A stretch of 64,000 nt of DNA, from assembly GCA_000004985.1 (NCBI GenBank), contig GG738895.1. One strand, written 5' to 3'. The notes under the pieces are model-generated. The model was not told where the DNA came from, made no database searches, and saw nothing but the letters and a program-made list of their open reading frames with translations. Each line of letters opens with the position of its first letter. The stretch's first letter is position 1. Source of the stretch: Naegleria gruberi. Taxonomy: Eukaryota. Shown here piece after piece: positions 15,461-63,874 of the stretch. Made by a program: the position numbers and the translations under genes.

Positions 15461-16588
15461 TTGAAATCAAAGGACCTTGTGTTTCATTTCCAAATGAAAC
15501 TTTTCAAAAAAATGATTCAACATCAACCTACTCTTCATGAAGACGATGAATCAATCACTTATTCGAATGATCATTTATTTGATTCACTCGGTGTTGATGT
15601 CATGATTGGAGAAATATTTCCACATTTTGAAGTTGAAACTCTACACTCAATTTTCACACTAGTATCCAAGTTTTGGTATGTGTGTGTTTGTTTGTATAGA
15701 GTGGAGTTTCTATCATTGAGAGGAGAATCGAATATTTTAGCTCTTTGTTCGAATTCTCCAAGAATGGTGGAAGTCAACAGTTTGGAGTTGATGCAATTGA
15801 GAGGTGAAACCTTGGTGATGAAAAGGATATTTCTTTCGGATAAGTGTTTTCCTAATAGATTTTCTTCACTTACTAGTCTTTCGTTTTATGGATCGAAAAT
15901 TGGAGATTCTTCTCTCAAATATTTAACACATTCGGCTATCTTACCTAATTTAACTGAATTGGATCTGTATCACAATAACATTACTGATAAAGGAATGAAA
16001 TCCATTTGTGAAGGAAATTTGAAACTTTCCATTCTGAAACTCAATTTAAATCGTGTAGGAGATTTAGGTTTTGAATTTCTCAAAAATTCTCAAATTTTGA
16101 AAGAAAATTTAAAAGAACTTTACATGACCTACAATGAAGTTACATCAAAAGGATTGGAAATTCTGAGCGGAATGGAAAATTCACGTCTCGAAACCTTAGT
16201 TCTAGTGAGCAACCGAATAGAATCGAATATTACAAACTTCTGTGCTAGCTCTCTTGCATCTCAATTGAAACATTTAAATTTGTCAAATAACTTATTGGGA
16301 AATAGTGGAGTCTTGGACATTTGTTCGGGAAATTTTCAATCCTTAGAAACCTTAATATTATCAAAGAATGCAATTCCAAAGGAATCCATTAGTATGCTAT
16401 TTGAAAGTAGTAATGGATTAAATTTGAAGAAATTGAAACATTTGGATTTGTATGGAAATGATTATATTCAAGTTGACGAGTTGGCAATTCCAACTTTCAA
16501 TTCCTTAGAAACTCTAATCTTTTCACATAGCTATAGGAACCCTTATTACCACCTATTCTGGCAAACCAAACAATTTTCAGCAAATTAA
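15461..16588 (+). CDS. F-box-like / RNI-type leucine-rich-repeat protein.
   Basis: 375-aa ORF. N-terminal F-box-like stretch (IGEIFPHFEVETLHSIFTLVSKFW), then repeated LxxLxLxxNxI units (LTELDLYHNNITDKGM..., LKHLNLSNNLLGNSGV...). Confidence 0.55.
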   Translation: MKSKDLVFHFQMKLFKKMIQHQPTLHEDDESITYSNDHLFDSLGVDVMIGEIFPHFEVETLHSIFTLVSKFWYVCVCLYRVEFLSLRGESNILALCSNSPRMVEVNSLELMQLRGETLVMKRIFLSDKCFPNRFSSLTSLSFYGSKIGDSSLKYLTHSAILPNLTELDLYHNNITDKGMKSICEGNLKLSILKLNLNRVGDLGFEFLKNSQILKENLKELYMTYNEVTSKGLEILSGMENSRLETLVLVSNRIESNITNFCASSLASQLKHLNLSNNLLGNSGVLDICSGNFQSLETLILSKNAIPKESISMLFESSNGLNLKKLKHLDLYGNDYIQVDELAIPTFNSLETLIFSHSYRNPYYHLFWQTKQFSAN

Positions 16589-16605
16589 TAAGGAATATTA
16601 ATTTT

Positions 16606-16615
16606 AAACCAAAAA
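16606..16615 (+). promoter_or_regulatory. Upstream element AAACCAAAAA, 70 nt 5' of tRNA-like gene copy 1 (DUSE-like).
   Basis: The same decamer lies 69-71 nt upstream of all four tRNA-like genes. It resembles the dictyostelid ncRNA upstream element (A/T)CCCA(C/T)AA, which sits about 60 nt upstream of ncRNA genes. Confidence 0.4.
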
Positions 16616-16675
16616 TGATTTGAATTATTAAAAGAAAATTCACAAATATAGTTAGTGGGAAGATTGCAGATTTGT

Positions 16676-16751
16676 GGGTGAATAGTTTAATTGGGAGAAC
16701 GTAGCCGTTGCACTAGAAGCTAAGGCGGTAGATCGAACCTACCTTCACCTA
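16676..16751 (+). ncRNA. tRNA-like Pol III gene, copy 1 (non-canonical 21-nt anticodon arm: stem TAGC/GCTA, loop 13 nt).
   Basis: Acceptor GGGTGAA/TTCACCT, D-arm GTTT-AATTGGGA-GAAC, T-arm GGTAG-ATCGAAC-CTACC, discriminator A. A T5 run at 16760..16764 follows immediately. Confidence 0.6.
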
Positions 16752-16871
16752 CGCTTAGCTTTTTCCCCACCAATTCTTAATAATTATTTAATAATACTAT
16801 ATAAATAATATTTAAAGAAATCATATCATACATTAATATTTAGGGTGAATATTTAAAGATATGATGTTAAA

Positions 16872-18472
16872 TTATGATTTTTCCTTTTCACTATTCTCTT
16901 CGTTCATCATAACCAATATTTGTTGAATAATTTCACATAAGGCAGTATCTTGGTCAGAATGCATCATTTCTTCGAGAGTATCCCTTATTCCACACTTATT
17001 CATTTCCTCTCTGAAATTATTGTTTTTCAATAGACTCAAAAGAGTACTCAAACAAATTTGGTTAACAGCTACTAATGACAATCCTTGATGAAGTATTGGT
17101 ACAACTCCAATCTTAATTAAATAATCAATAATATCGTCCGTTGCCGTAGTACATAAATTGTAGATAACATAGTAAGGTTCCTCTTTCACTATTAATTCGG
17201 TATTTTGTTTGACAGCTTCAATCACTAATTCAATAATTCCAGACTCAACAGCCGCTCTAATATGATCAATGGTTCCAGCAGTAATATTTGAAACGATAAA
17301 AATTGCTTCTTTCTTTAGAAAAGCATTCTCATTTAAAATGAAGGATGATAATGCAGATAATAATCGAATATTCAACATGTGGTCTGTATGAGAATTATTT
17401 CTTGTAACTATATATCCAACTAATTGAAGACAACCACTGAAAATATGAATATATTAACGTGAAATATTAAAGAATAATTTGAGAATAGATACTTACACTT
17501 GTATACTTGTACATTCAGAGGAAAGCAGCAAAATAACTTTTTCGATAATATTACCATAAGCTTGAATAAGTATTTCGATATGATCATCACTTATTGCTAT
17601 TTGAATAAGTGCCCAACAAACATTATTGACAACATCCTCATCAGAAGTATTAATTAATTTGGAGAGAACTGGCAGAACCATTTTGACATATTTGATAGAT
17701 ACATATGGTATTCCTCTCATCAAATTTACTAAGCACCATGAACCTAAATTAATCATAAGCCAATCATATCAAATAATATAGACCTACCCGTTCTTAGTAA
17801 ATTTACGAGAAATGTTTCATTTAAAAGATCTAATAAAGGCGTTAATACATCCCACTCCAGGACGAAATCTCTGAACCTGATAGAATCTCCACAAATATTT
17901 CCCAAAGCCCAAATGGCTTGTTCTCTCACGTTACAATCTGTCGAGTTTTTCAGTAGATTGATAAATGTAGGAACACATCCCAGCTCTACAACATGTGCTG
18001 TATCATATGGTGATCCACTAGCAATATTTGTCAATGACAATACTGATTCAAAAATCAATTTGTCAACCTGCACTTTTGTAATTGGATTTTCAGATTGATT
18101 ATTCCCATTTTCAATAGTGTAATATTTTGTAATATTCTCATGATCAAGAAAGTTTACCAACATTTTTGTACTACCGGCTTCAATGACCTTTCGAATATTG
18201 GCCGGTCGGTTATCCTCTCTCACTAATAGGCTTCTAATTGTCGTTACAGTTTCCAATACAGTTTTAAAGGAATTACATTGCATATCCAAATAATAATTTA
18301 AAATTCCGAGTTGATCAAGAGACAAGACTATTTCTCTTCTCTTGAGATGACGATTGCAAAATTTGGTTCGGGATTTATCAGAAATGCTTTTTCTAATTTT
18401 TTGTTTTTCTTTCCAAATGATTGCATTGGCGTGGAAAGATGATGAAATTGTTGCTGATTGTTGTTCACGCAT
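16872..18472 (-). CDS. Divergent importin-alpha (karyopherin-alpha)-like ARM-repeat protein. Exons 17788..18472, 17497..17743, 16872..17436; introns 44 and 60 nt.
   Basis: ARM repeats resemble importin-alpha (LTNIASGSPYDTAHVVELGCVPTFINLL...VREQAIWALGNICGDS; NVCWALIQIAISDD; KEAIFIVSNITAGT). N-terminus is basic and IBB-like. Splice junctions GTAGGT...TTTAG and GTAAGT...TTTCAG restore frame between the three track ORFs. Confidence 0.7.
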
Positions 18473-18638
18473 TTTTTTTTAAAAATTTGCTTGGAAATGA
18501 AAAATTCCATAAATATTTATGCAATCATTGTAAACTAAAAGATACAACAGCAATGATTGAAAATTTATTGAATGAAACCAAATATTTGCATAAATAGCAT
18601 ACAAGTTTTATCAATTTTTCGATAATGTTATTAATTTT

Positions 18639-18648
18639 AAACCAAAAA
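18639..18648 (+). promoter_or_regulatory. Upstream element AAACCAAAAA, 71 nt 5' of tRNA-like copy 2.
   Basis: Same decamer and spacing as copies 1, 3 and 4. Confidence 0.4.
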
Positions 18649-18709
18649 CTGTTGGAAATTTCCAAATAAAATTTCTCGAAAAAGGTTAATTATGAAATTG
18701 ATTTTTTGT

Positions 18710-18784
18710 GGGTGAATAGTTTAGTGGGAGAACATAGAAGGTACGGTAGATTCTAAGGCGGTAGATCGAAACTACCTTCACCTA
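18710..18784 (+). ncRNA. tRNA-like Pol III gene, copy 2 (anticodon arm stem TAGAA/TTCTA, loop 11 nt).
   Basis: Acceptor GGGTGAA/TTCACCT, D-arm GTTT-AGTGGGA-GAAC, T-arm GGTAG-ATCGAAA-CTACC. T-runs at 18793..18796 and 18800..18804. Confidence 0.6.
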
Positions 18785-18871
18785 CACAAAACTTTTAAAT
18801 TTTTGAGTTTACAATAAATGTTTATTTTCTTTAAATAGGCATTTTCAATGCAATTTAAAAAGAATAATTGT

Positions 18872-18881
18872 AAACCAAAAG
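18872..18881 (+). promoter_or_regulatory. Upstream element AAACCAAAAG, 69 nt 5' of tRNA-like copy 3.
   Basis: Variant of the decamer conserved upstream of the four copies. Confidence 0.35.
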
Positions 18882-18940
18882 ATTGATTGACATATTTTGA
18901 GAACTTTTACAATAATGATTGGTTCGAATTTCTGATTAGT

Positions 18941-19016
18941 AGGTGAATAGTTTAATTGGGAGAATGCAGTGGTCTATGTTGAATCTGCGGTGGTAGATCG
19001 AAACTACCTTCGCCTA
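18941..19016 (+). ncRNA. tRNA-like Pol III gene, copy 3 (A1:U72, with U4:G69 wobble in acceptor; anticodon arm stem GCAG/CTGC, loop 15 nt).
   Basis: Acceptor AGGTGAA/TTCGCCT, D-arm GTTT-AATTGGGA-GAAT, T-arm GGTAG-ATCGAAA-CTACC. T5 run at 19020..19024. Confidence 0.6.
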
Positions 19017-19152
19017 CTCTTTTTCCCTCCAAAATATGAGATAAATCATTTGATGCCTAGAAGACAAAGTACTGTTGAGATATATGATAAAGATCAAGTT
19101 TAAAAAATATGTGGAAATGTCATCATCTCTTTGAATATAGAAAATTAATTGT

Positions 19153-19162
19153 AAACCAAAAA
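19153..19162 (+). promoter_or_regulatory. Upstream element AAACCAAAAA, 71 nt 5' of tRNA-like copy 4.
   Basis: Same decamer and spacing. Confidence 0.4.
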
Positions 19163-19223
19163 TTGAATTACAATATTTTTAGAAATTTCACAATTAGGGT
19201 TGAGATCATAATTGGTCGTTGTT

Positions 19224-19300
19224 AGGTGAATGGTTTAATTGGGAGAACGCAGAGGTCCAGAGTAGAATCTGAGGTGGCAGATCGAAACTGCCTTCACCTA
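19224..19300 (+). ncRNA. tRNA-like Pol III gene, copy 4 (A1:U72; T-stem GGCAG/CTGCC compensatory; anticodon arm stem CAGA/TCTG, loop 14 nt).
   Basis: Acceptor AGGTGAA/TTCACCT, D-arm GTTT-AATTGGGA-GAAC, T loop ATCGAAA. T5 run at 19303..19307. Confidence 0.6.
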
Positions 19301-19368
19301 ACTTTTTACAACAATATTAAATTTTTTTAAATATTGTAAAGTTTTATTATAAATATACACAGTTTCCA

Positions 19369-19911: not shown

Positions 19912-22900
19912 ATGGTAAAGCTCTGGTATTTTCTGACAGTTTTATTGTCAATATTGATACTAGTGAGCCATTCATGTCAAGCAAAAGTCATTGATCCAAA
20001 TTCTCTCAACGCGGCAGTTGCTACTCATCTATACGAAAGAAAATTTCTGGGAGCTTTATGTGATGGAACTACTGGACTTGCATGTTATACTGGATATGTA
20101 AAACAAACCTTTCTCTACAATGAAACAGAATTGTATTTTACTAATAGTTTTACCAAGTCCATTAACAAGTATAATCTTCAGACGAAAGTGGTGGAAACTA
20201 TTGTTGGAACAGGTTCTTATCACAGAGCTCCTTTAACGCTCAGCGATTTGTATGCAACTCCAAAGGAAACTAATATTGGAGAACCTAATAGCGTTGCTGT
20301 TTATCAAGGATTCGTCTACTTTACAACAATTGAAAATACTGACGTGATTTTCAGAGTCAAAAGTGAAGGTAGTGGACTTGTTACAATCTTTGCTGGTGTT
20401 TCTGGGTCAACTGGTTATAATCCTTTGGTAATTTCAAGAACCTCTTCACCACTTTCTGGTCCAACTTATCTGAATTTCTATTCGAATGGTAATTTAATCT
20501 TGTATGAGAGTGAAATTTGTACCATTCGATTAATTTCTGGTAATAATATTACAACACTCGCAGGAAATGGCCTATGCAACTATGCCTATGTAAACAACAC
20601 ACTTTCGAATGGAATTTCGGCCATGACAATTTCCACCGATCAAATACTCTACATTTCCACACCTAGTGGAGTTATAATGAAATGGAATGGTGCAGATTTC
20701 GTAACTGTCTATGACACCCAAGCTTTTGTCAGCAGTTTGGCAGCAAACTCTGCAAATATTTACTTTACAACAGATACGAATGAGTTAAGCTCAGTTTCTA
20801 TTGATGGTTCGAATAGAGTTGTGTTGATGGGACCTAATCTAGGTTTCATGAGTGATGGCCAAGTTCTTTCTGGTGGAAAGACTGCCTCTCCAATGGCATT
20901 GTCCATTAGTAAGGCAAGTTCAACATTATTCTTTTCCGAAAATGGAAATGCCAGAATTAGAACTTATTTAAATGCCAATGTTAAAACCCTTATTGGATTT
21001 AGCTCATCAGGTTCAGCAGCTACTACTCTTGTCAATCCAACAAAGATGGCTCTCGTTGGATCCAATCTCTATGTTTTAGAGACCATGTCCGGCAGCATCC
21101 TCAATTATGATGTTAGTGGAAACGCTCCTGCTGGAGGTGGTGGTTACAAATTAGTGACATCCATTGCAGGATGTTCCAGTATTGTTGCCATTAATAATAC
21201 AGTCTATGTTGGCTCAACTCTATATAATTCAGTGTATAAGATTGAGGGAACTAAGGCGATAAGAATTGCTGGAAATGGAACTAATTTATCTAGTGGAGAT
21301 GGAAAGTATGCGAATGCTTCAACCATTTCAAATCCATTGGCGTTGGCTTCTGATTCGAGTGGAAGTTTATACATTCTTTCTACAAATATTATTAGAAAGG
21401 TCGATAAGAATGGAATCATTTCCACTCTATACAATTATTTTAGCACTGGATTGAATGATATTTACATTAGTGAAAAGGATGAAATATTAATCAGTGATTT
21501 GAAAGGTTATGTTTATCAATTGACCTGTACAACAGATTTATTTCAATTTTGTGGCTATATCCAAATTGCTGGTGTTTCTAATGGATTAGCCAGAAGTGTT
21601 GGTTTTAATAATGCATTAGAAGTGCCAATTAAGCCACTCACCATCTCTGCAGTGTCAAATTTCAAAACTGGTTACTGGAATACTTTGTTAATTTCTGAAT
21701 CGACAAGTATTTCAGTAGTTTCAGAAGGACTTATTTCTGGATTAGTCTACAATCCAAAGAATAGCCCAACAGTTAGTTTTCAAACCCTTCAAGTGACTGG
21801 CTTTGCAGTCAACCAAACCAATGGAGTCATTTACGTTTCAGGTCCTTACGGAATTTCAACATTAACTCCTTACAAATTACCAAGGGAAGCTTGTCCATGT
21901 TCTGGAAATGGAATTTGCTATTCGAATAATCCAAATCTCTGTCTTTGTGATCAAGGATGGAGTGGAACCAAATGTGCACTTCCATTGTGTAATGGAATTC
22001 TTTCTACAAATCCACAAGTTTGTACGAATGGTCAAGGAGTTTGTAGTGCTCCAGATAGTTGTGTTTGTAAATCTGGATTTGTTGGAACTCAATGTCAAAT
22101 TCCATTCTGTGTAGGATCAACTCTGAATGAAAACTTTACTTGTTCTGAAAGTCAGTCAAATTCGGGAAGCAATTCATCGACAAGTACAAAACAGGAAATT
22201 ATTGTTGAGGTTGTTGAGACAGTGACTGATCTAAATTCCAAGAATTTGACATTTACTACTGTTGACACTATTGAAGTTGTCTTTCCTTCAAACTTTTCAA
22301 GTTATCTTTCACAAACCATTTCACAAATTGCCAATAATCCAATTACACTAGTTTCGTCTGTGGTTGACTCTACAAATTCAAGCACTAATCCAAGTGAAAA
22401 TCCTGTCAAACCTCAACTCGTAGTCAGTCCAGTAATCACTCTCTCACTATTTACCAATTCTTCCATGATAATTTCTGTGAAAAACTTGGAGAAACCAATC
22501 GAATTACTCTTCACAAATATTCAACTCTCAAAAATTGAATCTTCCTCCAATCTTACATGCATGTTTTTCGATACCTCAATCAATGATTGGAGCGACGAAG
22601 GAATTTCCTCAAAAATCATTTCCATTCAACAAGCCGATTCTCAATTCGTAATTTCCATGAAATGTGAAACGAAACATTTAACTTCCTTTGCAGTAATTGA
22701 TAAGAATTATAAGAAACAAGTTTCGTCTCCCAATGAAGGAGGAAACAAAATACCAGCAACTGTTTCTGAATGGAAAAGTCAATTGGAAGGATTGAGTGAA
22801 AGTGAAATTATTGCAATTTCAGTTTCGATTGGTGGATCATGTTTGATTATTGCAACTTTGGCGATTTTAATTAGTGTAGTTTGTATCATTGTCATGAAGA

Positions 22901-22929
22901 GAAAGAAAAATCGTTGTTTAACCATTTAA
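19912..22929 (+). CDS. Paralog of the 6684..10231 receptor: signal peptide, NHL-like propeller, EGF repeats, GPS/GAIN-like motif (CMFFDTSINDWSDEG...MKCETKHLTSFAVI), TM, short tail ending CLTI.
   Basis: 1005-aa intronless ORF. Collinear with the 6684 gene through the segments IIVEVVETVTDLNSKNLTF / IIVQTIGTVEDLNSRVVNF and KHLTSFAVIDKNYKK / SHLTSFSVIDKNYKK. Confidence 0.8.
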   Translation: MVKLWYFLTVLLSILILVSHSCQAKVIDPNSLNAAVATHLYERKFLGALCDGTTGLACYTGYVKQTFLYNETELYFTNSFTKSINKYNLQTKVVETIVGTGSYHRAPLTLSDLYATPKETNIGEPNSVAVYQGFVYFTTIENTDVIFRVKSEGSGLVTIFAGVSGSTGYNPLVISRTSSPLSGPTYLNFYSNGNLILYESEICTIRLISGNNITTLAGNGLCNYAYVNNTLSNGISAMTISTDQILYISTPSGVIMKWNGADFVTVYDTQAFVSSLAANSANIYFTTDTNELSSVSIDGSNRVVLMGPNLGFMSDGQVLSGGKTASPMALSISKASSTLFFSENGNARIRTYLNANVKTLIGFSSSGSAATTLVNPTKMALVGSNLYVLETMSGSILNYDVSGNAPAGGGGYKLVTSIAGCSSIVAINNTVYVGSTLYNSVYKIEGTKAIRIAGNGTNLSSGDGKYANASTISNPLALASDSSGSLYILSTNIIRKVDKNGIISTLYNYFSTGLNDIYISEKDEILISDLKGYVYQLTCTTDLFQFCGYIQIAGVSNGLARSVGFNNALEVPIKPLTISAVSNFKTGYWNTLLISESTSISVVSEGLISGLVYNPKNSPTVSFQTLQVTGFAVNQTNGVIYVSGPYGISTLTPYKLPREACPCSGNGICYSNNPNLCLCDQGWSGTKCALPLCNGILSTNPQVCTNGQGVCSAPDSCVCKSGFVGTQCQIPFCVGSTLNENFTCSESQSNSGSNSSTSTKQEIIVEVVETVTDLNSKNLTFTTVDTIEVVFPSNFSSYLSQTISQIANNPITLVSSVVDSTNSSTNPSENPVKPQLVVSPVITLSLFTNSSMIISVKNLEKPIELLFTNIQLSKIESSSNLTCMFFDTSINDWSDEGISSKIISIQQADSQFVISMKCETKHLTSFAVIDKNYKKQVSSPNEGGNKIPATVSEWKSQLEGLSESEIIAISVSIGGSCLIIATLAILISVVCIIVMKRKKNRCLTI

Positions 22930-41702: not shown

Positions 41703-42080
41703 GTTTTACAATTATTCGAAAGAAGCGAATTAATTTTTTTGGACAAAATCATATTTAGAATTTTTGTCAACTGTTACTCAATAGTTCTAACTTGTTGTAA
41801 AATTACAATAGTAGCCATTAACTGTTCAATTTTTTCATAACATGATAACAGCCTTTTTCAGTAAAGGAATCGATTCTATCAATATTTTTACATTATGCTT
41901 CATTGGTTGGAATTTATCTGACTCGCTCTTTGCTACTAGATATTTCATTGTTTTTGGACCAATATGTATCAAAGTCTATCTAATGAATAATTGAAAGTCT
42001 CGGTAATCCATTTGGTAGTTTTGCATGAATGGAACAACTATTGTTAACACAAATATATTCCACGGAAAAAAAGATAAAAA

Positions 42081-42198
42081 GACTACAGCACCACAGGTTC
42101 CCAAGTTGTCTCCAACCTCAGTACTGATGTGGCTCGACGATGCTTAACTTCTCAAATCGGACGGGATGAGGTGCATTCATCGTGATATGGCCGTAGCC
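42081..42198 (-). rRNA. 5S ribosomal RNA gene (118 nt).
   Basis: Minus-strand read: GGCTACGGCCATATCACGATGAATGCACCTCATCCCGTCCGATTTGAGAAGTTAAGCATCGTCGAGCCACATCAGTACTGAGGTTGGAGACAACTTGGGAACCTGTGGTGCTGTAGTC. It carries eukaryotic 5S hallmarks (GGCCATA, CCCGTCCGAT, AGTACT, GGGAAC, GTGCTGTAG). A T5 terminator lies immediately 3' (plus 42076..42080). Confidence 0.85.
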
Positions 42199-43302: not shown

Positions 43303-43338
43303 TGGAGTCATAGGGAATCGAACCCTAGACCTTCTGCA

Positions 43339-43369
<31 letters not shown>

Positions 43370-43375
43370 AACCCC
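43303..43375 (-). tRNA. tRNA-Ala (anticodon UGC).
   Basis: Minus-strand read GGGGTTATAGCTCAGTTGGTAGAGCGTCTGCTTTGCATGCAGAAGGTCTAGGGTTCGATTCCCTATGACTCCA. Has the G3:U70 Ala identity pair, anticodon loop TTTGCAT, a canonical T loop, and a T-run terminator just 3' (plus 43296..43301). Confidence 0.9.
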
Positions 43376-48571: not shown

Positions 48572-49789
48572 ATGAGCGAAGATACAACATTTAATCCAAT
48601 TAGTGTTACTGCTTATGCAGTTGGTGAGAAGAAGGACTCTCAAAAATTGGTTTCCTTTGATAAGGTTGAAAAGCAAGTTAAGAGCATTGGTCCAAATCAT
48701 GTATTTGTTGAATTGATTTGTAGTAGTATTTGTCATACGGACTGGTTTACTTTTGGATCGAAAGGTGCTGTTCCTGGACACGAAATGGTATGTAACTTTT
48801 TAATCAATTGGTTGAAATTAACATGGTAAATTGTGTGAATGAAACAACATTTACTTAATTCAGGTTGGTATTGTTAAGCATATTGGAGAAAATGTCGCCC
48901 ATGAAGGTAAAATCAAAGTTGGCATGCGTGTTGGTATGGGATATCAATTTACTTCATGTCGTCATTGTGAAACTTGCACTAATAATTTGGAAAATTTGTG
49001 TGATAGCTCCAAACCATTTTACACAGCTCCAATTGGTGGAGGATACCAAACAGGAGTTGTTTGGGATGCTCACTTTGTCTTCCCAATTCCAGATAACTTG
49101 AAATCCATCCATGCTGCTCCATTGCTCTGTGCTGGTGCCACTGTCTTTACTGCATTGCACAGATATACAAAGAATCCTCAATATAAGGTTCCAGGTAAAC
49201 CACTCAGTTGTGCAGTGTTGGGATTGGGAGGTCTTGGACATTTGGCCATTCAATACGCTAAAAAGATGGGTTTGCATGTTACTGCATTGAGTACTACTGC
49301 TAGTAAGGAGGAAGAATGCAGATCGTTTGGAGCTGATGAATTTTATGTTCACACCACTGAAGAAGCAAAGACAACTTTAGCATCAAAGTTTGATATTATT
49401 TTGAATACTGTTAGTGGAGATATTGAACTTGATAAGTTTATTGTCATGTTGAGACCTTATGGTCAATTGTGCATGTTGGGTCTTCGTAAGTATTTAACAA
49501 GATTATCAAATTGTGAAATTAACGTAATTTAGCATCAAATCCAAGATATGACTTGTCAGCATTTTCTCTCATTCTGAAGGCTCGTTCCTTGGTCTCTTCT
49601 GTCATTGGTTCTCCAGAAGAATTGAATTTAATGTTGAAGTTCAGTGCTGATCACGATATTAAACCACAAGTTGAGTTGACCACTTTGGATAAAGTTGGTG
49701 AAGCAATTGAAAAGGTTAATTCCAATAAGGTTAGATATAGAATGGTTATGATTGTCAATCAAGAACAAGTTGATAAGGAAAATCAATAA
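48572..49789 (+). CDS. Zinc-dependent alcohol dehydrogenase (cinnamyl/NADP-ADH-like). Exons 48572..48787, 48864..49485, 49533..49789; introns 76 and 47 nt.
   Basis: Zn-ADH motifs: ICHTDWFTFGSKGAVPGHEM|VGIV, a second Zn site CRHCETCTNNLENLC, and cofactor loop AVLGLGGLGHLAIQYAK. Junctions GTATGT...TTCAG and GTAAGT...TTTAG restore frame across the three track ORFs. Confidence 0.8.
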
Positions 49790-54077: not shown

Positions 54078-55048
54078 ATGCTCAAAACCTCCAATCGTCT
54101 CTCCTCTCTTGTTTCTTGTCAAGCTTTAAAGGAAGCCATCAACAAGACAAGCAATATTAAAATTATTGACGGATCATGGCATATGCCAGCCATGAAACGT
54201 AATGGCTATGAAGAATATTTAAAAGAACACATTCCGAATGCTAGATTTTTTGATATTGATGGATTGAGTGATCAAAACACTGATTTGCCACACATGTTCC
54301 CTTCTGTTGAATTGTTTGAGAAGAGCATTACAGAAATGGGTATTGAAAATACTGATCAAATTGTTGTATATGATACTGCCTTTACTTCAGCATTCAGAGT
54401 TTGGTATACGTTTAAAGTTTTTGGACATGAAGGGAAGGTTAGCTTGTTGGATGGTGGATTAACCAAGTGGAAGCTATTGGGCTATCCTATCGAAAGTGGA
54501 AAACCAAATATTACTCCATCATCTCATCCGTACAAGGCCAAATATCAATCGGATTTTGTTGCAAGAATGGACGAAATTTTGGATAATTTGAATAATCAAA
54601 AATCATACATTGTTGGTATGTAATATTATTAGTGGAATATTAGTGAGATATGATACTATTTATTATACACTGAATAGATGCTAGATCAGCTGAAAGATTT
54701 AATGGAACTCAACCAGAACCTCGTCCAAATTTAAAGAGTGGACACATTCCAAATTCTTTCAATATTCCATTCCCAACTCTTGTCAATCCAGAAGATAAAA
54801 CTTTCAAGACAGATGAAGAGATTTTGAAATTATTCCAAAACTCTGGTTTGAACATTCAATACATTAATGATAAGATTGTAATTGACAAGCCAATTATTGG
54901 AAGTTGTGGAAGTGGTGTAACTGCTTGTGCCTTGCTCTATTCCCTTAATCTTCTTGGTGTTTCTCTTGATAAACTTCGTATTTATGATGGCTCCTTCTCG
55001 GAGTACGGAAAGGAATCATTCACCAATCCAGTTTCCCAAAGAAAATAA
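54078..55048 (+). CDS. Rhodanese-family sulfurtransferase (3-mercaptopyruvate/thiosulfate sulfurtransferase-like), two rhodanese domains. Exons 54078..54615 and 54678..55048.
   Basis: Domain 1: IKIIDGSWHMP...LLDGGLTKWK. Domain 2 after a GTATGT...AATAG intron: VDARSAERFNGTQPEP...SGHIPNSFNIPF...CGSGVTACAL (active-site Cys). Confidence 0.8.
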
Positions 55049-55094
55049 GTTTCAACAAGTTCCACACATCATTCACATTTCACTCAAAAAAAAA

Positions 55095-57389
55095 ATGTCA
55101 TCATATACAGAGATTATTAGTGGGTTAAGTGTTAGAGCCTCCGGTGTGCATACAAACTTGGATGAAAATGGAATGGTGACTAATAAAGATCCAAAAGAAA
55201 GACTTTTAGAAGTGTGTAAGGATATTATTTCCTACTACAATTCCTACCAAGACAAGACACAAGATTTCTGCCAGAAAATTACAGCCATATTCGAATCGTT
55301 TGTTGCAGACAAGAGGTTTAATTCAATCTTCCTTGAAAAGGATGTTGCAGCTGTTTATTCCGATTGTCTGATCAATCCGAAATATGGTATCAAATTAACA
55401 GGACACGGAGGTATTTGGAAGTTGGTCAATTTTCAACATATTGTTACGAAGGAGACGACAAAACAGTTTGTGGATATTGGTCTATTGGACATGTTCAATC
55501 AACTGAATGCCACAACTGTTGATTGTACCAATACTTCCTACACTACTTCTATCATGAATATTTATCATGTTATCGGAACTCAGAAGGAATATGCTCGATT
55601 GGTTGTTAGACCAGTGATTGCCCTGATACTCAAGCTTGAAAATAGTAGTTATGAAGCTAGAAATTATATGAATTACTTGTTTAATATTGTTGGATGTGAT
55701 AGGGAAAGAATTTTTGAAGAATATGGAAAAGATCTTGAAGAGGTCAATAAGAAATTTGAAAAGAACAAGAATCAAACAATCAAGCAACTTCTCTTTGATT
55801 TATTTGGCACAAAGAATGCAGAATTTGTTTCCCTATTGATTGACTATGCAGGAACTAAGAAGAAATACTCCTTCCCTATTGATAATGAGATTGAAACTAC
55901 TGTTGAAGATGTGACACAATTCATTTTGGAGAAGTGTGTTATGGAGGATGTAGATGTGATTGAGAGTCATGAATTACAAATTTACGATATGGATATTGAG
56001 GACTATGTGGATTTTGATTTTATTGATTCGGATATTTTTGGAAAGGATGGTAATGCTGCCAAGTTCAAGTTGAACGTTACAATTGATTATGATAAAAAGA
56101 GAAAAAAGGAAGAAAAAAGAGAATCCGAGTTGAGAGAATTATCCGAGAAGAGTATATCTAGTATCAACCTTTCAGAAAAGTCGCTGGCAGACTCTGTACC
56201 ATCTTCTCACAAATTCGATAGCAGTATTGCTAGCTCAGGAATTGAAATGTCTAGTATGGAAATGTCCGCTATGAAAGATTCAGGAAATGAAATTTCTGGT
56301 ATTCCAATGTCAGGAATCCAAATGTCTGGTATTGAAATGTCTGGAATTCAAATGTCAGGCGTTGAAATGTCAGGTATTGAAATGTCTGGATTTTCGTCAT
56401 CTCACTCAATCTCAGGTCATAATGGTCCTCTTGAAATGCCATCATTTATTTCTGCTGCTGAAAATGCTCCAAAGGTAGAGCTAACCGAGAATAGTTTATT
56501 AGGTGGCAGCTTTGAGATTCCAGATTCATTCAAAGAACCAGTTGTCACATCTCAAAAGGACAAAAAGACCAAAAAGATTGTTAATGAAACATATCAAATA
56601 TTGGATAAGATTGAATCTAATGAATCAATGATTGATAGAAAGGTTTATATTGCAAAGGATTTGGCCAACAAATCTGGTCCAAATATTGTAATCAAATATT
56701 TACCAATCAAATCAACCACCGAATTCAACAGATGTATGAAGGAAGGAGTAAATATGATTCGTATGGGAAGAACTATTCAACAAAAGAAGATTCCACTCGC
56801 AAACATATTCGATGTCTTTGAAGAAGAAGACAAGGAGAAGAATAAGGCATCCATCAGATTCCTTTGTTTTGCCATGCCTTACTATGGATCTGGAAATTTG
56901 CAAACCTATTTGGAATCAAAGAATCAACCATCCTTGGATTGGAATTTCATCTACTCTCTATTCAAGCAAATTGTTAATGGTTTGGTGTATTTGCATGAAC
57001 AAAATATTGCTCACAAGAATCTCAAACTCTCCAATGTTTTCTTTGTGGATGAGGATAAAATCGTACTGACAGATTATGGACTAAATAGTGACATTTCATC
57101 ACAAGTACCAGAACACAATTCTCTGAGCAATGTGGAAAATATTCCAATTGAGAAATTCCAAAAGGCAGATATCTATCAAGCCGGGTTAATATTTGCCTCC
57201 CTGTGTTTGCTCCTGAATGGTAACACGGTGAGTAATTTGACTACGATTTTGAAGGAAGGAGAAAGCTCATTAAGAAATTCTCTTGGTAAAATCCCAGAAA
57301 AAGCAAAGGACATGGCTGTCAAATTATTGACTCAAGATCCAAATGAAAGACCATCCATTCAGCAAGTTGTCAATTTGTTGGATATCTAG
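55095..57389 (+). CDS. Protein with C-terminal protein-kinase-like domain predicted to be catalytically inactive (HKNLKLSN, DYG), and an internal MSGIxMSG tandem repeat.
   Basis: Real start is the ATG at 55095; the upstream part of track ORF 54927.. overlaps the rhodanese exon. The kinase-like region reads YLHEQNIAHKNLKLSNVFFVDEDKIVLTDYGL, with HRD changed to HKN and DFG to DYG. Confidence 0.6.
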   Translation: MSSYTEIISGLSVRASGVHTNLDENGMVTNKDPKERLLEVCKDIISYYNSYQDKTQDFCQKITAIFESFVADKRFNSIFLEKDVAAVYSDCLINPKYGIKLTGHGGIWKLVNFQHIVTKETTKQFVDIGLLDMFNQLNATTVDCTNTSYTTSIMNIYHVIGTQKEYARLVVRPVIALILKLENSSYEARNYMNYLFNIVGCDRERIFEEYGKDLEEVNKKFEKNKNQTIKQLLFDLFGTKNAEFVSLLIDYAGTKKKYSFPIDNEIETTVEDVTQFILEKCVMEDVDVIESHELQIYDMDIEDYVDFDFIDSDIFGKDGNAAKFKLNVTIDYDKKRKKEEKRESELRELSEKSISSINLSEKSLADSVPSSHKFDSSIASSGIEMSSMEMSAMKDSGNEISGIPMSGIQMSGIEMSGIQMSGVEMSGIEMSGFSSSHSISGHNGPLEMPSFISAAENAPKVELTENSLLGGSFEIPDSFKEPVVTSQKDKKTKKIVNETYQILDKIESNESMIDRKVYIAKDLANKSGPNIVIKYLPIKSTTEFNRCMKEGVNMIRMGRTIQQKKIPLANIFDVFEEEDKEKNKASIRFLCFAMPYYGSGNLQTYLESKNQPSLDWNFIYSLFKQIVNGLVYLHEQNIAHKNLKLSNVFFVDEDKIVLTDYGLNSDISSQVPEHNSLSNVENIPIEKFQKADIYQAGLIFASLCLLLNGNTVSNLTTILKEGESSLRNSLGKIPEKAKDMAVKLLTQDPNERPSIQQVVNLLDI
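56235..56392 (+). repeat. In-frame tandem repeat of ~8 units of 18 nt, encoding (M/I)SG(I/V)(E/Q)MSG.
   Basis: atgtcaggaatccaaatgtctggtattgaaatgtctggaattcaaatgtcaggcgttgaaatgtcaggtattgaaatgtct. Confidence 0.6.
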
Positions 57390-63800: not shown

Positions 63801-63874
63801 TGCCTCCCTTGGGAATCGAACCCAAGACCTCTGTCTTACTAGGACAGCGCTACTGCCAACTGAGCTAGGAAGGC
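63801..63874 (-). tRNA. tRNA-Thr (anticodon AGU).
   Basis: Minus-strand read GCCTTCCTAGCTCAGTTGGCAGTAGCGCTGTCCTAGTAAGACAGAGGTCTTGGGTTCGATTCCCAAGGGAGGCA. Anticodon stem CTGTC/GACAG with loop CTAGTAA, canonical T loop TTCGATT, and 7-bp acceptor including a U5:G68 wobble. Confidence 0.88.

Follow-up and report, generated by a model that had tools for sequence, protein, structure and literature searches.

Four tRNA-like genes with an enlarged anticodon loop in Naegleria gruberi, a candidate family of non-decoding tRNA mimics

A 64-kb stretch of nuclear DNA from the free-living heterolobosean Naegleria gruberi (contig GG738895.1 of assembly GCA_000004985.1; GC content about 33% throughout), referred to below as the window, carries four same-strand genes in which a complete tRNA body surrounds an anticodon arm with an oversized loop. 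The genes combine a tRNA fold, a signature of selection, and promoter- and terminator-like signals of the type that RNA polymerase III (Pol III) uses. This deviant tRNA-like gene family is real and, to judge from its sequence, probably functional. The interpretation preferred here, on which we place about even weight, is that the genes form a Naegleria-lineage family of selected, Pol III-transcribed tRNA mimics that take no part in decoding; we infer their transcription, their processing, their non-decoding role and the existence of a partner. The four genes appear to be undescribed.

The tRNA-like body and the anticodon arm

The four copies lie on the plus strand at 16676..16751 (copy 1, 76 nt, with the anticodon arm UAGCC-GUUGCACUAGA-AGCUA), 18710..18784 (copy 2, 75 nt, UAGAA-GGUACGGUAGA-UUCUA), 18941..19016 (copy 3, 76 nt, CAGUG-GUCUAUGUUGA-AUCUG) and 19224..19300 (copy 4, 77 nt, CAGAG-GUCCAGAGUAGA-AUCUG). 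An earlier sequence-only reading had placed four same-strand elements at these positions, and two kinds of match bear this out. A 21-nt motif from the 3' end, with up to three mismatches allowed, occurs at exactly these four sites in the window, where shuffled sequences lead one to expect none. A covariance model built from the four copies, as the same reading had proposed, and run over the window recovers the four only, with scores of 98.9, 93, 94.8 and 98.5 bits for copies 1 to 4. The next-best matches to this model over the 64 kb, with filters off, are two true tRNAs at 30.5 and 19.6 bits; a weak match at 54452-54522 lies in coding sequence and was set aside.

The general Rfam tRNA model (RF00005) had been expected to reject the four loci. 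Instead it scores copies 1 to 4 at 44.3, 46.7, 35.4 and 41.9 bits, all above its gathering score of 29, and each of these alignments passes over the loop as a local insertion. The four copies match no further Rfam family, even at E-values up to 10, and ARAGORN at default settings calls none of them, with or without its intron search. By score the four elements are clearly members of the tRNA clan and make up a deviant tRNA-like family. The suggestion that they belong to no known class of non-coding RNA therefore stands in that there is no dedicated Rfam family and that the literature searches found no paper describing them, but it fails with respect to the clan.

Given the alignment alone, RNAalifold returns a cloverleaf with a 7-bp acceptor stem, a 4-bp D stem, a 5-bp T stem and a 4-bp anticodon stem that closes a loop of 14 columns. 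Nucleotides U8, A14, G18, G19, A21, G45, G46, G53, U55, C56, A58 and C61 and the discriminator A73 are present in all four copies, and every copy has both the cloverleaf stems and the conserved tertiary nucleotides of a canonical tRNA. The 15:48 tertiary pair covaries: copy 2 has G15:C48, copies 3 and 4 have A15:U48, and copy 1 combines A15 with C48. Positions 26 and 44 are occupied by G26:A44 in copies 1 and 4, by A:A in copy 2 and by G:C in copy 3.

The combination of T54 with a pyrimidine at position 60, as in ordinary tRNAs, is not found. All four copies have A54; the T loop of copy 1 reads AUCGAAC, with C60, and that of the other three reads AUCGAAA, with A60. The first pair of the acceptor stem is A1:U72 in copies 3 and 4 and G1.U72 in copies 1 and 2. 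These details had been read correctly from the letters, as had the U4.G69 pair of copy 3 and the GGCAG/CUGCC T stem of copy 4. A54 together with A60 is a hallmark of the eukaryotic cytoplasmic initiator tRNA, and in known eukaryotic systems a T loop of this kind and a weak 1:72 pair help to exclude the initiator from elongation. The description "initiator-type" draws on the T loop and the 1:72 pair only; the copies have no CAU anticodon, and their anticodon stems lack the initiator's three G:C pairs.

The 5-bp stem and 7-nt loop with U33 and a purine at position 37 that mark the anticodon arm of a tRNA are not found in the four copies. The stem comprises 3-5 bp of the form YAG-N-N/N-N-CUR, in which the YAG/CUR core is common to the copies and two of the core pairs never vary. 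Variation is confined to 27:43, with UA and CG in two copies each, and to 30:40 (CG, AU, UU and AU in copies 1-4), and 31:39 is mismatched in three copies. The stems had been described as differing completely from copy to copy while always pairing. Covariation is indeed present at two pairs, but it does not amount to a wholly different stem in each copy, and U30.U40 in copy 3 is not a standard pair. The loop is oversized, as claimed, but its length is nearly constant rather than 11-15 nt: with five positions fixed on each strand it measures 11, 11, 11 and 12 nt in copies 1-4. It has a recognizable frame in which an invariant G32 and a U33 (three of four copies) are followed by 5-6 variable nucleotides and then by an invariant U-(A/U)-G-A directly before the 3' strand. 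Inspection of the loop by eye for K-turn, sarcin-ricin and Ro-binding motifs gave no match.

The absence of a consistent 7-nt anticodon loop, claimed in the sequence-only reading, survived an exhaustive search. When all possible contiguous segments of 0-11 nt were cut in turn out of each copy's central region, none of the products had a 5-bp stem free of mismatches that closes a 7-nt loop with U33 and a purine at position 37. With relaxed thresholds ARAGORN calls all four copies, but with introns at four different positions and with the anticodons TTA (stop), GTA, TTG and CCA.

The same evidence bears on the alternative that these are genuine decoding tRNAs interrupted by an ultra-short intron of 3-5 nt between positions 37 and 38, which we consider unlikely. 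When both stem strands are fixed the excess is 4, 4, 4 and 5 nt, and it can be placed exactly at this site, so that the spliced loops would read G32-U33-NNN-N37-A38 with the triplets UGC, UAC or ACG, CUA, and CCA. The pattern of conservation is compatible with such a boundary, in that positions 34-37 vary among the copies, whereas G32, U33 (three of four), A38 and, counted from the putative 3' splice site, a U at -3 and a G at -1 are conserved. A G32.U(-3) pair would moreover resemble the anticodon-intron pair that the eukaryotic splicing endonuclease reportedly requires in yeast pre-tRNAs, nucleomorph tRNA introns are said to be as short as 3 nt, and the relaxed ARAGORN search reads copy 4 as a tRNA-Trp(CCA) with a 5-nt intron at 37/38. 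The products, however, would be non-canonical, with a mismatched 31:39 in three copies (C.A, G.A and G.A), G32 in all four, and further departures in copy 2 (G33) and copy 3 (U37). The best ARAGORN solutions do not agree on an intron position, and there is no helix to present a bulge-helix-bulge motif. Near-identical bodies with different anticodons also conflict with known identity rules: the UGC copy has G3:C70 where alanine needs G3:U70, and the CUA triplet would read a stop codon. In known eukaryotic systems a T loop with A54/A60 also acts against elongation. Since a single body would be shared, the products would be tRNAs for recoding or suppression, not ordinary isoacceptors, and it is only this exotic version of the alternative, itself improbable, that survives. 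In that version, 3-5-nt micro-introns at 37/38 of one common body may produce, among others, a CUA member that reads a stop codon and a CCA member, with anticodon stems that are in effect 4 bp long; if true, it would set a new lower bound on the length of nuclear tRNA introns and would provide tRNAs that break the identity rules.

Conservation and transcription signals

Mean pairwise identity among the four copies is 0.89 in the acceptor and D half and 0.92 in the T and acceptor half, compared with 0.62 in the central arm. The flanks stand at 0.53 (-120 to -81) and 0.55 (60 nt downstream), at the level expected from shuffled sequence (0.50-0.53). On the cloverleaf 95% of pair cells hold standard pairs, against 38-50% in controls with a slid register. 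Three pairs are doubly changed, namely 27:43 (UA/CG), 30:40 (CG versus AU) and 51:63 (UA to CG), and the remaining stem changes are GU/AU or UA/UG switches, with the exceptions of U30.U40 in copy 3 and of 31:39. Saturated flanks around halves that are still about 90% identical point to old duplications in which the RNA body has been under selection, not to decaying pseudogenes, and in this respect the conclusion of the sequence-only reading, that the elements represent a structured RNA, is sustained.

The copies fall into two subtypes, copy 1 with copy 2 and copy 3 with copy 4, so that the 27:43 swap may be a single event and the number of independent compensatory events comes to about three or four; the covariation is suggestive and not statistically decisive. 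Copies 1 and 2 are of the same subtype despite the protein-coding gene that lies between them. The upstream regions pair in the same way, with 80% identity over 45 nt between 16596-16640 and 18629-18673 (copies 1 and 2) and 76% over 62 nt between 18860-18921 and 19141-19202 (copies 3 and 4), and this pairing agrees with the differences at G1/A1, 27:43 and position 48.

These data also bear on the possibility that the copies are non-functional tRNA-derived duplicates (pseudo-tRNAs), or sites kept at the DNA level for binding of TFIIIC and Pol III through their A and B boxes. The tRNA gene (tDNA) count of N. gruberi, 924, is reported as unusually high (PMC2888827), which suggests tRNA-derived copies, and the four genes may already be counted in that total. 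Their Rfam tRNA scores of 35-47 bits are well under those of the true tRNAs of the window (72 and 54), and their folding energies are unexceptional. Neither decay nor simple retention of the boxes accounts well for the identity of the two halves, which includes the acceptor-stem strands outside the A and B boxes while the flanks are saturated, or for stem changes that, U30.U40 in copy 3 and 31:39 excepted, preserve pairing and in three cases are double. The perfect conservation of an upstream 10-mer at a fixed distance (see below) argues in the same direction. Gene conversion is a poor explanation for the similar halves, as it would hardly homogenize two segments of 25-30 nt without also levelling the 21 nt that separate them, which are about 50% diverged. 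A short interspersed element is disfavored because the copies lack an A-tail, target-site duplications and a body unrelated to tRNA, and because a run of T starts 3-9 nt beyond the discriminator. We assign this group of explanations a low probability.

Upstream of each copy lies an identical box, TAAACCAAAA, in a position like that of a proximal sequence element (PSE). It is found on the plus strand at 16605..16614, 18638..18647, 18871..18880 and 19152..19161, with its 3' end 62, 63, 61 and 63 nt before copies 1 to 4, respectively, and the exact 10-mer occurs nowhere else in the 64 kb. No exact TAAACCAAAA is present near the 5S rRNA gene, the tRNA-Ala gene or the tRNA-Thr gene of the same window; about 69 nt before the tRNA-Thr gene lies TAAACAAAAA, which is A-rich and differs from the box by one mismatch, and a further one-mismatch copy at 49660 was set aside as it falls within coding sequence. 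A second, semi-conserved upstream block, TTTCACAAWTA-like and at about -38 to -27, occupies the position of a TATA box; it is AAAATTCACAAATATAG in copy 1 (16635..16655), AAATTTCTCGAAAAAGG in copy 2 (18669..18689), GAACTTTTACAATAATG in copy 3 (18900..18920) and AAATTTCACAATTAGGG in copy 4 (19183..19203), all on the plus strand. Within the genes the D-arm region is A-box-like, and the GGYAGATCGAAMC stretch retains the invariant positions of a B box. Downstream, runs resembling Pol III terminators are found on the plus strand as T5 at 16760..16764 (9 nt after copy 1), T4 at 18793..18796 (9 nt after copy 2, with a T5 run next), T5 at 19020..19024 (4 nt after copy 3) and T5 at 19303..19307 (3 nt after copy 4). 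In all four copies, then, a run of at least four T begins 3-9 nt past the discriminator, where the background frequency of a start within 15 nt is 0.12.

The earlier assignment to Pol III-type genes is in keeping with the A- and B-box-like sequences and the T runs, and it gains from the upstream boxes, which had gone unmentioned. The combined layout is that of a putative hybrid Pol III promoter, unlike that of the ordinary tRNA genes of the window, and transcription is presumed from it. A trypanosome-style arrangement, in which the tRNA-like gene would serve as promoter for a divergent small nuclear RNA (snRNA), was considered and rejected: there is no conserved or Rfam-detectable opposite-strand gene upstream, and the spacers are only 156 and 207 nt. 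Hybrid promoters of this layout are known from the vertebrate genes for tRNA-Sec, vault RNA and 7SL RNA. The copies could accordingly be regarded as vault-RNA-like or other ribonucleoprotein scaffold RNAs (of the vault or Ro/TROVE type) that have retained a tRNA-derived promoter and shape, as vault RNA genes have the same organization of A and B boxes with upstream elements, tandem paralogues and a variable centre (PMC7916137). Candidate homologues of the major vault protein (MVP) have been reported for N. gruberi, but they are less than 20% identical to rat MVP. Against this idea there is also no match to the Rfam Vault or Y RNA families at E-values up to 10, and a full cloverleaf of 75-77 nt contrasts with a panhandle of 80-140 nt; we regard it as very improbable.

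Proposed mode of action, relatives and neighbouring genes

If the genes are non-decoding tRNA mimics, Pol III would transcribe each of them from a hybrid promoter composed of the PSE-like TAAACCAAAA (-71 to -62), the box at the TATA position and the internal A- and B-box-like sequences, and would terminate at the T4-5 run just downstream. The transcript would be expected to take the normal tRNA L-shape, because all nucleotides of the tertiary contacts are present. With an intact L-shape and an acceptor/T minihelix, the RNAs should be accepted by RNase P and RNase Z, which would probably mature them, and perhaps also by the CCA-adding enzyme, from which they could receive CCA. The enlarged loop would be unable to form the standard 7-nt U-turn anticodon loop, and codon reading is for this reason probably impossible. 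The pairing of a constant body with a variable hairpin suggests a common docking partner and copy-specific working ends: the body would dock on tRNA-binding machinery, while the enlarged hairpin would bind a protein or pair with another RNA.

Several observations weigh against this proposal. The canonical intron site 37/38 accommodates the extra 4-5 nt of the loop exactly, a pair between the invariant G32 and an invariant U located three nucleotides ahead of that site is conceivable, and four divergent paralogues sit badly with a single partner such as 7SL RNA. The comparison comprises four sequences of two subtypes from one locus, with only about 3-4 independent compensatory events, and the folding energies of single sequences are no better than those of shuffles (z from -0.5 to -1.4). 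Members beyond the four were not found in the window with the covariance model, filters off. A first metagenome scan gave no homologue and a second gave nine chance matches without a tRNA fold; a viral scan gave no match, and a prokaryote scan gave two chance matches. Finally, five heterolobosean-like contigs that carry orthologues of the neighbouring CDK10-like kinase and armadillo (ARM)-repeat genes contain neither a tRNA-like copy nor a tRNA.

These five contigs, presumably from other heteroloboseans, are environmental or sequencing-run contigs (L010, JGI 3300002220; L011, Logan SRR29240419; L012, ENA ERZ2098899; L013 and L014, ENA). Their proteins are 52-57% identical to the Naegleria kinase and ARM proteins, and their gene order is unlike that of the window. 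A role for the copies as primer-binding sites of a retroelement was discarded, as the window holds no extra match to their 3' end on either strand. No description of the genes came from literature searches on Naegleria tRNA-like RNAs, tRNA introns, signal recognition particle (SRP) RNA and Pol III, on enlarged anticodon loops, or with the genes' own sequences; nor did the searches yield a report on a loss of SRP9/14 or a truncated Alu domain in Naegleria.

The gene that separates copy 1 from copies 2-4 (16872-18472, minus strand) encodes an armadillo-repeat, importin-alpha-like protein; it has at least two short GT-AG introns, at about 17379-17437 and 17747-17789, and its start codon lies 237 nt from copy 2 in divergent orientation. 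Its product found no Naegleria entry in a protein search, and the gene may be unannotated or modelled differently. The neighbouring CDK10-like kinase is a 98% match to an N. gruberi protein. Beyond copy 4, an open reading frame (ORF) of 1005 aa (19912-22929, plus strand) is identical over its full length (100%) to a predicted N. gruberi protein. Its product is secreted and membrane-anchored and combines beta-propeller repeats of NHL type with EGF-like domains; leaving aside the N. gruberi entry, its nearest relatives in the search are mostly bacterial, of Acidobacteria type, at 22-31% identity. The window also carries, on the minus strand, a 5S rRNA gene (42080-42198; 105 bits) about 1.1 kb from the tRNA-Ala(UGC) gene (43303-43375), and a tRNA-Thr(AGU) gene (63801-63874). 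The last two are ordinary tRNA genes, and with the Rfam tRNA model the true tRNAs score 72.2 and 53.9 bits. A tandem repeat of about 11 units of 15 nt (five codons) occupies 56235-56404 on the plus strand, inside a long ORF (54927-57389).

Significance and comparison with known systems

If expressed, the four RNAs would be free-standing tRNA mimics of a new class, in an amoeba that is a free-living heterolobosean, and their promoter architecture would be distinct from that of ordinary tRNA genes in the same genome. Their expression would extend the reuse of tRNA bodies as scaffolds beyond trypanosomatids, and it could indicate whether the two-RNA SRP of trypanosomatids has older roots within Discoba. 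Whether the genes are mimics or intron-bearing tRNAs, the TAAACCAAAA box is a candidate snRNA-type promoter element of Naegleria, with possible uses in the search for further Pol III genes and as a driver of small-RNA expression in this organism. A bolder interpretation, speculative and on balance doubtful, is that of a tRNA-shaped adaptor family with a constant body that would engage ribosomal or tRNA-handling machinery and a copy-specific loop core of 5-6 nt; the family would be either a relative or ancestor, in a free-living excavate, of the trypanosomatid SRP tRNA-like RNA, or a set of micro-intron recoding tRNAs.

The copies resemble several known RNAs in part. Enlarged anticodon loops occur in frameshift suppressors and in yeast mitochondrial tRNA-Thr1, where the sizes found described are 8 nt, and we know of no anticodon loop as large as 11-12 nt. 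Initiator tRNA-Met shares A54 with all copies, A60 with copies 2-4 and A1:U72 with copies 3 and 4, along with a normal D/T elbow. The Naegleria copies differ from it in lacking CAU in the loop register and the three G:C pairs at 29-31:39-41, in their 11-12-nt loop, in unrelated acceptor and D-arm sequences, and in the G1.U72 pair of two copies. With vault RNA genes such as the human VTRNA1 cluster they have in common the hybrid promoter layout, tandem paralogues, and conserved termini around a variable centre, whereas vault RNAs are panhandles of 80-140 nt and the Naegleria copies are complete cloverleaves with no match to them in Rfam.

Other RNAs place a tRNA-like body in a different setting. 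RNAs of the mascRNA type are tRNA-like cloverleaves with a non-functional anticodon arm that are matured by tRNA-processing enzymes. They are cut from long RNA polymerase II transcripts, whereas the Naegleria copies appear to be free-standing Pol III genes, each with its own promoter and terminator. The nematode nev-tRNAs have one constant body with differing anticodon-region sequences and keep the canonical 7-nt loop. The Naegleria copies are like them in the constant body and the varying anticodon region, and unlike them in a loop that is not 7 nt.

The nearest precedent, as far as a comparison by description can suggest, is the SRP tRNA-like RNA of trypanosomatids, known as Trypanosoma brucei sRNA-76 and Leptomonas collosoma sRNA-85, a non-decoding Pol III transcript of 76-85 nt (PMC2800229). 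It has nucleotides inserted in the anticodon stem, pairs with 7SL RNA and makes a tRNA-like contact with the ribosome (PMC2800229; PMC9283944). The Naegleria genes could be its heterolobosean counterpart, producing RNAs that pair with 7SL RNA, dock on the ribosome and supply the elongation arrest of the Alu domain, a role to which we attach only a small probability. The broad lineage (Discoba) is common to both, the sizes are similar (75-77 versus 76-85 nt), and both are tRNA-like, of Pol III type and deviant in the anticodon arm (PMC2800229; PMC9283944), and N. gruberi has a recognizable 7SL RNA (PMC8321541), although no 7SL gene lies in the window. Trypanosomatids, however, have one such RNA, and four paralogues with differing loop cores would be unexpected for a single 7SL partner. 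As non-decoding mimics, the Naegleria RNAs would be like the SRP RNA in joining a tRNA-like body, presumably transcribed by Pol III, to an altered anticodon arm (PMC2800229). They would be unlike that single 7SL-pairing RNA in their number, as four divergent paralogues whose loop cores differ, in their T loop, which is of initiator type, and in having an upstream box of their own.

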